From: Sulfolobales archaeon HS-7
GTDB taxonomy: Archaea > Thermoproteota > Thermoprotei_A > Sulfolobales > Sulfolobaceae
Assembly (NCBI GenBank): GCA_019704295.1
Contig: AP024596.1
Location: 1,856,001 to 1,920,000 of the forward strand
Direction of reading: 5' to 3'
DNA length: 64,000 nucleotides
Positions within the stretch are counted from its first letter, which is position 1. Every line of letters starts with the position of its first letter. The notes beneath the pieces were generated by a model. The model saw only the letters and a list, made by a program, of their open reading frames with translations. It was not told the origin of the DNA and made no database searches. Position numbers and translations under genes: made by a program. This document shows positions 433 through 2,745 of this stretch, one piece after another.

Positions 433-975
433 TTGTTCATTCAAGTACCTGAGAGTAAATTAAATGTAGTAAACGAGTTGCTTGAACAACTTCAATACAT
501 TAAAAAAGTTAAATTAACATTTGATGAGAAGAAGAAGATAATAACAGTTGTTCCTGAGGAAGGGTATACTTACGAGGCGTTAAAGGTCGAACAAGTAATT
601 AAGGCGTTTTTTGCAGGATATCCTCTGACAAAGGCTTCTAGGTTATTATCAGACGAGTATAGGTTTGACGTGATAGATCTTAAAGAGTATTCCCACGACC
701 CGAAGAAAATCAACAGGATAAAAAGTAGATTGATAGGAAAAAATGGGAAGTTTAAGAAGGATATAGAGGACTACACTTCAGTAAGCTTGCTCATTACCGA
801 CAGGTACATATACATTTTAGGACCCTATGATCAAATGAGCATAGCGCGTAACGCACTTGAACGAATAATTGATGGTGTAGAACATCAGTTAGTGTATAAG
901 TATATAGAGAATGCCGAAAGATCGATAATGGATTACAAGTTAGTTAAGAGTAAAAGAGATAATCAAGAGCAATGA
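433..975 (+). CDS. KH-domain rRNA-processing protein (Dim2/Pno1/Krr1 family)
   Basis: SRLIGKNGK GxxG KH loop; follows rio1 as is usual in archaea. Confidence 0.88.
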   Translation: MFIQVPESKLNVVNELLEQLQYIKKVKLTFDEKKKIITVVPEEGYTYEALKVEQVIKAFFAGYPLTKASRLLSDEYRFDVIDLKEYSHDPKKINRIKSRLIGKNGKFKKDIEDYTSVSLLITDRYIYILGPYDQMSIARNALERIIDGVEHQLVYKYIENAERSIMDYKLVKSKRDNQEQ

Positions 976-1513
976 GCTTCGCTTCGTTATCTTGTGTACT
1001 GTTAAAGAAAAACTTCAACGCTGAACTATACTTTTTAAGGTTATCTAAAACCTCCTTCTCTCTAAGGAGAATATTCAAGTTATCTACATTATTTGTTATA
1101 ACGTTATACATGAATTCTAAAAGTTCCCTTTTCGGCTTACTAAGCACTTCAACCGTAAAATACAGTTTAGGTTCGGGTCTCATAACTAGGGTTAAATGTC
1201 TTTTAGATAAGGGAACCAACATTGCTAATTTAAAGCCAGAGTATTCCTTAGTAGGCGAATGATTTGTAGCCTTAACTTCAATATAATATCTCTCCCCATC
1301 CTTGACTGCCTCTAAATCGTGTGTGGGGAGATCTACGTAAATTACCTCCTTATATCCCCATTCCTCTAGAAGATTCTTAGCCCTAAATTCCATCGCATAA
1401 CCTAAAATAATACCCTTAGCTCGCTCTATCGCGAAATCTATTTCCTCTTCTGAGAGGCCTAATTTTTTCAGAGATTCGATTCCTGATAGTTTGCAAGACA
1501 TGTTGTTCATCAT
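944..1513 (-). CDS. PD-(D/E)XK nuclease-like protein (DUF3883-like)
   Basis: E..A...L..WGY, HDLEA and YYIEVKAT motifs; start overlaps the aRF1 stop (TAATG). Confidence 0.6.
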   Translation of the reverse strand: MMNNMSCKLSGIESLKKLGLSEEEIDFAIERAKGIILGYAMEFRAKNLLEEWGYKEVIYVDLPTHDLEAVKDGERYYIEVKATNHSPTKEYSGFKLAMLVPLSKRHLTLVMRPEPKLYFTVEVLSKPKRELLEFMYNVITNNVDNLNILLREKEVLDNLKKYSSALKFFFNSTQDNEAKLIALDYLFYS

Positions 1514-2614
1514 TAATACTTGAATCTTAGTAGACCTATAGCACCTTGGAAGGTCTGCTGCACCCAGTCTGCTTCCGGAAGTTCGTCATTAACGTAAAAT
1601 ACAGTTGCTCCTTTCTTTTTCGCCTCATCCCCTAGCTTTTCCAACTCCTTATTACCCTCATATATAACAAGCTTCTCAATAGCTCCCATATCTAATGCTT
1701 TTTTGATCTCCTCAATACCATATACTACATTACTATCGCCCTTTGCTAGATGATACTTTATCTCCTCAAGAACTTTAGTCACCTCTATGTATTTCTGACC
1801 CTTAAGCATATCCCCCGCTTTAACTAATACTTCTCTAATTCCTCCTTCTCCCTGATATCCTACATCAATCAACGGCTGCATTACAATTTTCTTTAACCTA
1901 TAGTCCATATAGTCGCCCTCAAAGAAGTAGTTTTTAGCAAAGCCTGGACCAGCTAGGAGAATACCCTTTAATCTTCCCTCTTCCAAATATGGTAGTAAGT
2001 AACTGTTTACCCTCTCTCCCACGCTCTTGAAAAAGTCGTGTATCAATTCCTCGTGAATTCTGTCCATTCGCCTTTGACTTTGCCCTCCCATCTTATGTTT
2101 CCTTGGAAGAAAAGTGTCCATCTCTTCTAAGACCTCAACTCTCAGACCCTTTACGAGGCCGATCGTAGCCTCATCATTCTCTATGATGATAACCGCGAAA
2201 TAATCCGAGTCGTCGACCATGCTCTCCAAAAACTCTAAGTGATATTCCTTGTCCGTTCTGTAGAAGTATATGGTAACCTTTTCTGGAGGAATTACCATAA
2301 AGCATGAAAAAGTGTTTGTATCAAAATTTTCTCCGCAAAATAACGCTAGTCCCGTTTGCGGAACTTTACTTATCTGGACAAGCCTATCAATAGCTCCCGA
2401 TATTGCAGACTCAACTGCGTCTCTAGTCCTCTTTAGCTTGATGTTCTGAGATATTGACAATTCCTGCCTTAAGTTGTTTATTACATCGGCAACTGGTCTA
2501 CCTGGAGGGATATATAACGATAATAGAGTTGTGGCCGGTGAGTGCCATTTTTTCAGTTCCTTTATAAGAGATTTCAATTGATCTTTATCTAACTTATACT
2601 TTTCAAAGACTCAT
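1513..2614 (-). CDS. prf1: Peptide chain release factor aRF1; main frame 1513..2610, probable start ATG 2614 joined by a +1 frameshift at CTT-TGA
   Basis: [16 protein letters not shown] and [10 protein letters not shown] motifs; the frame extends upstream of TTG 2577 (EKYKLDKDQ) to a TGA at 2611-2613; ATG AGT CTT TGA lies in the adjacent frame. Confidence 0.95.
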
Positions 2615-2745
2615 CCCTGTTTCCCAAATATCTGTTATTCTGAGTAGAATAAAAAACTACTTAGTTAGCTTCACTATTTCAATCGGTATAAATGAGGTCT
2701 AGAAATACATTTTGAATATCGGAAACCTACATTCATTCGACTAAC

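Follow-up and report, generated by a model that had tools for sequence, protein, structure and literature searches.

The window analysed here is a stretch of 64,000 nucleotides from the genome of Sulfolobales archaeon HS-7 (2,151,177 bp, one contig), and it carries on its minus strand the gene for the archaeal release factor aRF1. If one base is skipped, the open frame of this gene runs from 2604 to 1516, with its stop reaching to 1513. The frame matches TIGR03676 over its full length (393.5 bits against a cut-off of 234.7) as well as all three Pfam domains (eRF1_1-3), and at E<=0.001 the match is unique in the HS-7 genome. Like canonical aRF1 (Aeropyrum pernix, PDB 3agk/3vmf), the product is an ordinary protein with NIKL, YxCxxxF-like and GGQ motifs; residue 2 of the 363-aa frame aligns to residue 9 of 3agk, and the two are colinear from there. 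The stop codon of aRF1 overlaps the ATG (TAATG) of a 189-aa ORF on the same strand (window 944-1513). This ORF has no NCBIfam match and is not the neighbour of aRF1 in the closest relatives of HS-7, L328 and L330; it contains a D-(X)n-EVK stretch which we take to recall a PD-(D/E)xK nuclease-like domain.

At the 5' end of aRF1 the minus strand (2625-2599) reads ATG (2614-2612), AGT (2611-2609), CTT (2608-2606) and TGA (2605-2603), with three T in the run at the slip site (plus-strand A 2605-2607). This is exactly the order given in the original prediction, which placed aRF1 in the +1 frame behind this short frame, where a frame of 363 aa is indeed found. An upstream in-frame start is excluded because the TGA at 2613-2611 closes the aRF1 frame. 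The 15-mer at the site occurs only once in the whole 2.15-Mb genome, which also contains a gene for tRNA-Leu(GAG). The features of the locus are collected in Table 1.

Table 1. Features at the 5' end of the aRF1 gene of HS-7 (window positions)
Feature	Position	Strand	Basis or remark
TATA-like box of the aRF1 promoter (putative)	2648..2655	-	T-run 41-34 nt upstream of ATG
Short 5' leader, predicted, about 8-11 nt	2615..2625	-	Family logo; predicted TSS
Internal SD-like element GGGAUGA overlapping the start codon	2611..2617	-	Pairing computed; function putative
Upstream frame Met-Ser-Leu-stop, three codons	2603..2614	-	ATG-AGY-CTT-stop in 46/46 Sulfolobaceae
TGA closing the aRF1 frame on the upstream side	2611..2613	-	Same in 46/46 Sulfolobaceae
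Slip site CUU-U; P-site tRNA-Leu(GAG) proposed to re-pair CUU -> UUU	2605..2608	-	NTT-T in all 149 loci
Internal stop UGA, putative sensor of aRF1 activity	2603..2605	-	+4 base A here, C in most relatives
aRF1 coding frame (+1), 363 aa; predicted full product 366 aa, (M)SLEKYKLDK...	1513..2604	-	TIGR03676 match, 3agk alignment, model
TTG, start in the database annotation (354-aa protein, P0002); probably an ordinary Leu codon	2575..2577	-	Leu in 46/46, TTG in only 15

The first possible start within the aRF1 frame is the TTG at 2577, which is codon 10. In an AlphaFold model of the protein, residue 4 is assigned to a strand and residues 7-18 to a helix (pLDDT 81-85), so that this TTG falls inside helix 1, in line with what had been predicted. 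It is highly improbable that this TTG, or another downstream codon, is the true start and that the upstream motif merely belongs to the promoter or the leader. Such a start would agree with the database annotation and would leave the NIKS, YxCxxxF and GGQ motifs intact, but the codon for residue 10, Leu in all 46 Sulfolobaceae, is TTG in only 15 of them, and truncation at this point would cut helix 1. Within the family the first possible downstream start lies anywhere from residue 4 to residue 87, and in some relatives it is found only at residue 41-87, past the first strand or the NIKS loop. The stretch that follows the slip site, residues 1-9, also evolves as coding sequence (in Sulfolobaceae, an entropy of 1.13 bits at third positions versus 0.63 and 0.59 at the others). 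Third-position variation, pLDDT and the alignment to 3agk thus all indicate that the residues between the slip site and the TTG are coding. Orthologues with a continuous frame start with MSLSDKL (L074, L084), MSLEEKL (L211) or MSSLEEKL (L168), a pattern, M-S-(x)-L-E/S, that matches the predicted HS-7 product MSLEKYKL. Database aRF1 proteins of Sulfolobaceae (P0002-P0085) start at at least eight different positions and are 301-363 aa long; none starts with MSL, and some starts fall past the first strand. This scatter is a family-wide annotation error. Since the inspected database proteins are N-terminally truncated, recombinant aRF1 cloned accordingly may lack the start of the stop-recognition domain. 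In the available part of a cryo-EM study of S. acidocaldarius aRF1, the gene was cloned, a frameshift is not mentioned and domain I was not resolved (PMC10516650).

On the aRF1 tree, HS-7 forms the deepest branch of the Sulfolobaceae (f1), a family whose named members include Acidianus, Metallosphaera, Aramenus, Stygiolobus and Sulfodiicoccus. Every one of the 46 members with an aRF1 match carries ATG-AGY-CTT followed by TGA (39) or TAG (7); none has an upstream in-frame start, and a continuous ORF, looked for among these relatives, was found in none of them. The two closest relatives of HS-7, L328 and L330 (proteins 76% and 72% identical), come from independent Logan and JGI assemblies, read ATG-AGT-CTT-TGA-G and ATG-AGC-CTT-TGA-C, and likewise have three T at the slip site. 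A homopolymer sequencing error or a pseudogene might have been suspected from the short T run and from an apparent one-base problem at aroD in the same assembly. Conservation refutes it, leaving a negligible probability: the gene is essential and single-copy, and the agreement of 46/46 family genomes and of independently assembled close relatives rules out an error in the HS-7 sequence.

The signature extends well beyond this family. A conserved ATG-N(3n)-YTT-TRA across Sulfolobales had been put forward as a check; what was found is broader, namely a start, 1-3 codons, NTT and a stop in 149 of the 158 aRF1 genes sampled from ten families of Sulfolobales and their close kin, a count that comes from related genomes and so does not represent independent events. 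If a canonical start is left out of the definition, NTT-stop is found in 157 of the same 158 genes. The full signature is present in all Desulfurococcaceae sampled (f6, 35/35; Desulfurococcus, Thermogladius, Staphylothermus, Thermosphaera), in f9 (15/15), f12 (8/8), f14 (2/2) and f4 (1/1), and in part of f10 (30/37, including Zestosphaera), f2 (11/13, including AG1) and f13 (1/3). Leaving aside a small number of chance matches ahead of normal starts, it was not found in Fervidicoccaceae (7 genes), f8 (5), Pyrodictiaceae (15), 12 genes from other orders of the class or 30 genes from other classes, nor in Acidilobaceae, where, unlike in HS-7, the aRF1 gene is continuous in 16/16 sampled. Signal-bearing genes do not form one clade (AU p = 1.3e-10, quick tree) and are interleaved with continuous lineages: the Pyrodictiaceae genes fall together with those of f12, and a shifted gene with two continuous ones of f13. 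This pattern is most simply read as a single gain with several later losses, on a tree whose backbone is without resolution, and the switch is probably old within the order-level group and has been lost several times.

The variation that is tolerated at the site can reveal what selection keeps. Across the 149 loci, the slip codon is ATT (65), CTT (51), TTT (29) or GTT (4), and the internal stop is TAG (104), TGA (43) or TAA (2). The identity of the stop has changed separately within f1, f9 and f12, always remaining a stop. Changes in the upstream frame are synonymous or conservative (AGT/AGC, with residue 2 being Ser, Gly, Pro or Thr). The start lies at -6 in 111 loci, at -9 in 33 and at -12 in 5, and the base at -1 is a pyrimidine in 146 of the 149. 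In the aRF1 frame the site would be translated as Phe followed by Ser, Asp, Glu, Asn or Arg. TTC, which accounts for 62% of the Phe codons of these genes, never serves as the Phe codon here, nor does TCN, at 55% of their Ser codons, ever serve as the Ser codon. The codon after UUU always begins with AG, GA or AA, whereas the second codon does so in only 17 of 43 continuous genes. Since the synonymous TTC and TCN are never used, what is maintained is the stop and the UUU rather than the amino acids.

These constraints can be read in terms of a +1 shift. UUU is on offer after a +1 step at every slip codon, and since all slip codons are NUU with a U as the next base, positions 2 and 3 would re-pair unchanged. 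NUU codons are read by G34-A35 tRNAs, which retain two of their three pairs when moved to UUU. Arguing against a shift, the AUU and GUU slip codons (69/149) would need a first-position mismatch after it. Two other routes into the aRF1 frame were considered and rejected. Readthrough would fail because the upstream frame is not the aRF1 frame and meets its next stop two codons on (median 2 in relatives). A -2 slip would place the tRNA on a codon that is free to vary, with TAA found in two loci; the +1 codon, in contrast, is UUU throughout.

Correction at the RNA level would also restore the frame, whether by transcriptional slippage, editing or a bulge-helix-bulge intron that removes one (or 3n+1) bases. 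The run of five T in f6 would suit slippage of this kind, but HS-7 has only three. Moreover, such mechanisms exert no selection for a stop codon, the conserved stretch is only about 20 nt long with coding conservation directly after it, and the predicted fold of the 5' region contains no bulge-helix-bulge at the site. We therefore regard RNA-level correction as very unlikely.

The leader of the gene can be described from the family logo and from pairing with 16S rRNA. Sulfolobaceae share a conserved T/A-rich box at -38..-33, with a purine-rich block ahead of it, and their leaders read GAT(C/T/A)AGGG with a conserved GAT at -8 from the ATG. From the box and the GAT a leader of about 8 nt can be predicted. 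A hairpin formed by this conserved GAT was rejected, as the fourth base varies without compensation. The 3' end of the 16S gene in the HS-7 genome is GGATCACCTCA. In Sulfolobaceae the leader GAUC pairs with 16S rRNA at a mean of -3.6 kcal/mol, with C1535 placed 10 nt before the ATG, and the genome-wide SD spacing in HS-7 is 8-11 nt. A separate SD at the same initiation distance from the ATG is found in f6, f9 and f12. An initiation-spaced SD ahead of the ATG in f1, f6, f9 and f12 supports this ATG as a real start.

A second element, GGGAUGA, overlaps the start codon. It had been claimed that GGGAUG lies exactly 3 nt before CUU and can pair imperfectly with the anti-SD of this genome in the manner of bacterial prfB. 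Spacing and imperfect pairing both stand, but the helix is weaker than that of prfB and is set further back: GGGAUGA pairs with the HS-7 anti-SD at -4.6 kcal/mol (family mean -4.3) with C1535 opposite -6, whereas an E. coli prfB control gave -10.7 kcal/mol with C1535 at -4. Pairing at -4, the compressed register of prfB, or at -5 was found neither in HS-7 nor in the other families, whose best SD register puts C1535 at -8 or -9. Within f1, four loci of genus g2 (L009, L012, L014, L016) keep ATG-AGY-CTT-TAG and have lost the GGG before the ATG, which makes them a natural test of the need for an internal SD. The register and the loss of GGG in these four genes weigh against the frameshift reading. 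As far as can be judged by comparing sequences, the internal SD-like element is conserved in most genes and a prfB-type compressed helix is not. GGGAUGA may act as a pause, anchor or stimulator once the ribosome is at the stop.

The most serious rival to a frameshift is that ribosomes initiate non-canonically, or reinitiate after termination, at the overlapping UUU or AUU to give M-E-K-Y, where the poor start would keep aRF1 low. Several observations are in keeping with it. In f2, f9, f10, f12 and f14 the SD stands 8-9 nt ahead of the slip codon, at the initiation spacing of the genome; the base before UUU is free; TTT occupies the place of the ATG in continuous orthologues (ATG-AGC-GAG); and among exceptional loci, L193 and L196 have ATT in the aRF1 frame and L094 and L100 appear to use ACG. 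UUU is, however, not known as a recognised start codon. Initiation there leaves unexplained an ever-present stop with a changing identity, an ATG that is always present two codons earlier and has an SD of its own, the pyrimidine at -1 and the match to the CUU-stop of prfB and of the Mimivirus gene R726. In the case of reinitiation, feedback would be positive and not negative. Taken together, these points make initiation at UUU or AUU quite unlikely. A near-cognate start at the codon before TTT was also considered and rejected, as this codon varies (GTC, GCC, GTT, GTA, ATA, CTA, GCA, GGA) and is a stop in L139 and L140.

A +1 ribosomal shift is thus very probably required for full-length aRF1, judging by the comparative pattern and by analogy. 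It was originally proposed that the site is a negative-feedback recoding switch, and the comparative data support this in that they show the pattern expected of a stop-dependent +1 shift; we infer the slippage and feedback steps by analogy with prfB and R726. Under this model, ribosomes would initiate at the AUG at 2614 on an mRNA with a short leader and make Met-Ser-Leu, which would bring UGA into the A site. With aRF1 (and aEF1A) arriving fast, the tripeptide would be released. With aRF1 scarce, peptidyl-tRNA-Leu(GAG) would slip from CUU to UUU, GAA would enter the A site and the 366-aa factor would be made. The 16S 3' end, by pairing with GGGAUGA, may keep the ribosome in place at the stop, in an arrangement that is weaker and more relaxed than that of prfB and that is not universal.

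The shift could also be real but constitutive, serving as a fixed attenuator of aRF1 or as a sensor of something else. This would fit the weak SD and the common stop context in HS-7: the site has UGA-A, the commonest UGA context of its genome, and not UGA-C, which speaks against feedback. Across the 149 loci, on the other hand, the base after the internal stop is C in 106 (71%), although natural UGA and UAG stops in the HS-7 genome are followed by C less often than by any other base (10% and 15%). This enrichment of C, the acceptance of all three stops, and the placement of the shift site at a stop codon of the very gene that encodes the sole stop-reading factor make a constitutive shift unlikely. 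Overall, a +1 shift that also forms a negative-feedback loop is the probable reading of the sequence comparisons and of the analogous systems.

The closest parallel in logic is bacterial prfB. In both cases, a class I release factor gene is broken near its 5' end by CUU-stop with a +1 step onto UUU, C is preferred after the stop (among the relatives, with A in HS-7), a purine-rich element lies upstream, and there are repeated losses in sub-lineages and N-terminally truncated annotations (PMC12421855, PMC3711429). The differences are equally instructive. The archaeal protein has the aRF1/eRF1 fold, which is non-homologous to RF2; the site lies at codon 3-5 in the archaeal genes and at codon 26 in prfB; and the archaeal SD is weaker, overlaps the start codon and puts C1535 at -6 to -9, versus -4 in prfB. 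AUU and GUU slip codons, common in the archaeal genes, are absent from the bacterial prfB survey, in which the internal stop is TGA in 98.6% and TAA in 1.4% of 8,164 genomes, with no TAG (PMC12421855). The archaeal site, in contrast, uses all three stops, with TAG the commonest. Bacterial prfB lacks TAG because RF2 does not read it, whereas aRF1 reads all three stops (PMC3521657), so that free use of TAG, TGA and TAA would be expected at its internal stop. The aRF1 site thus appears to work like prfB without being a member of that family.

Within the same protein family, the nearest case is Mimivirus R726. Like the archaeal gene, R726 and its Megavirus counterpart mg280 encode an eRF1/aRF1-type protein with a +1 shift at CUU-stop (CUU-UAG-C or CUU-UAA-C), and the shift has been shown in E. 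coli (PMC3521657). Unlike the archaeal site, these genes are viral and are translated by eukaryotic ribosomes, readthrough is also needed, and the site is internal (PMC3521657). The paper on the giant-virus release factors describes such autoregulation as absent from archaeal and eukaryotic homologues (PMC3521657). Recoding on archaeal ribosomes is itself known, for example in S. solfataricus fucA1 (-1), the methanococcal Mg chelatase (-1) and haloviral tail genes (PMC8211752, PMC5009743). In contrast to the aRF1 site, these frameshifts are mostly -1, are not at a stop, are not order-wide and do not concern a core translation factor. Reviews of archaeal recoding and frameshifting do not mention aRF1 (PMC8211752, 2021; PMC5009743), and the available portion of the GeneTack survey yielded no aRF1 case. 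The original prediction knew of no such description in archaea. No report of an aRF1 frameshift in cellular archaea was found in the literature covered, which leaves out most subscription journals, although the same logic is known from the eRF1/aRF1-type gene of Mimivirus (PMC3521657).

It seems likely, if somewhat less so than the feedback loop itself, that an order-level lineage containing the Sulfolobales has independently evolved release-factor autoregulation by +1 frameshifting, 2-4 codons after initiation, with all three stops and four NUU slip codons and with no need for a prfB-type compressed SD helix. Among essential genes on archaeal chromosomes, this would be the first with a conserved +1 programmed frameshift, which would also act as a built-in sensor of termination efficiency in living archaeal cells. 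If true, evolution would have converged strikingly on CUU-stop, in a factor that is not homologous and in a third domain of life. The site could serve as a natural reporter of archaeal termination efficiency and stop-context rules, usable in genetically tractable Sulfolobales, and its natural variants (four slip codons, three stops, three spacings and several reversions) could be used to dissect +1 slippage just after initiation.

A number of loci depart from the common layout; eight genes with ATT-TAG and two with TAT-TAG count against the frameshift reading. The eight keep ATT-TAG and lack the canonical upstream start. Four of these (L212-L215) have GTG in the aRF1 frame and are probable reversions through a one-base indel. 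The others have ATC (L207, L079), ATT (L112) or ATA (L136) at -6, which are possibly near-cognate starts. Two f10 loci of genus g78 (L193, L196) have no canonical aRF1 start; TAT-TAG puts ATT in the aRF1 frame, 6 nt past the SD, and it looks as though one T was lost and AUU is now the start. In two f11 loci of genus g89 (L094, L100) the aRF1 frame is continuous and its N-terminus is without ATG, GTG or TTG. Here ACG-AGC-TAC after the SD matches ATG-AGC-TAC of relatives, which suggests an ACG start that may hold aRF1 low after loss of the shift.

Outside the window, the best look-alike in the HS-7 genome is an aroD-like (type I dehydroquinase) frame (G000:C1:647036-647690, minus strand; L331, L332), the first 18 codons of which contain no in-frame start and which is preceded by an SD and ATG-TCT-CTT-TAA. 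This frame served as a specificity control. Because all 29 relatives examined have ordinary in-frame starts, a one-base indel (an error or a lineage-specific change) is likelier here than a conserved shift. A second, divergent aRF1-like gene (L047, G011:C51:3313-4305; 31% identity, ordinary ATG) lies on a small contig of a Sulfolobaceae MAG and is a contamination or a paralogue. Finally, ARAGORN calls two tRNAs with the anticodon TTA ('Stop') in the HS-7 genome (G000:C1:1829248-1829335 and 1855149-1855236), which are more probably tRNAs with introns that the program has folded wrongly than suppressors.
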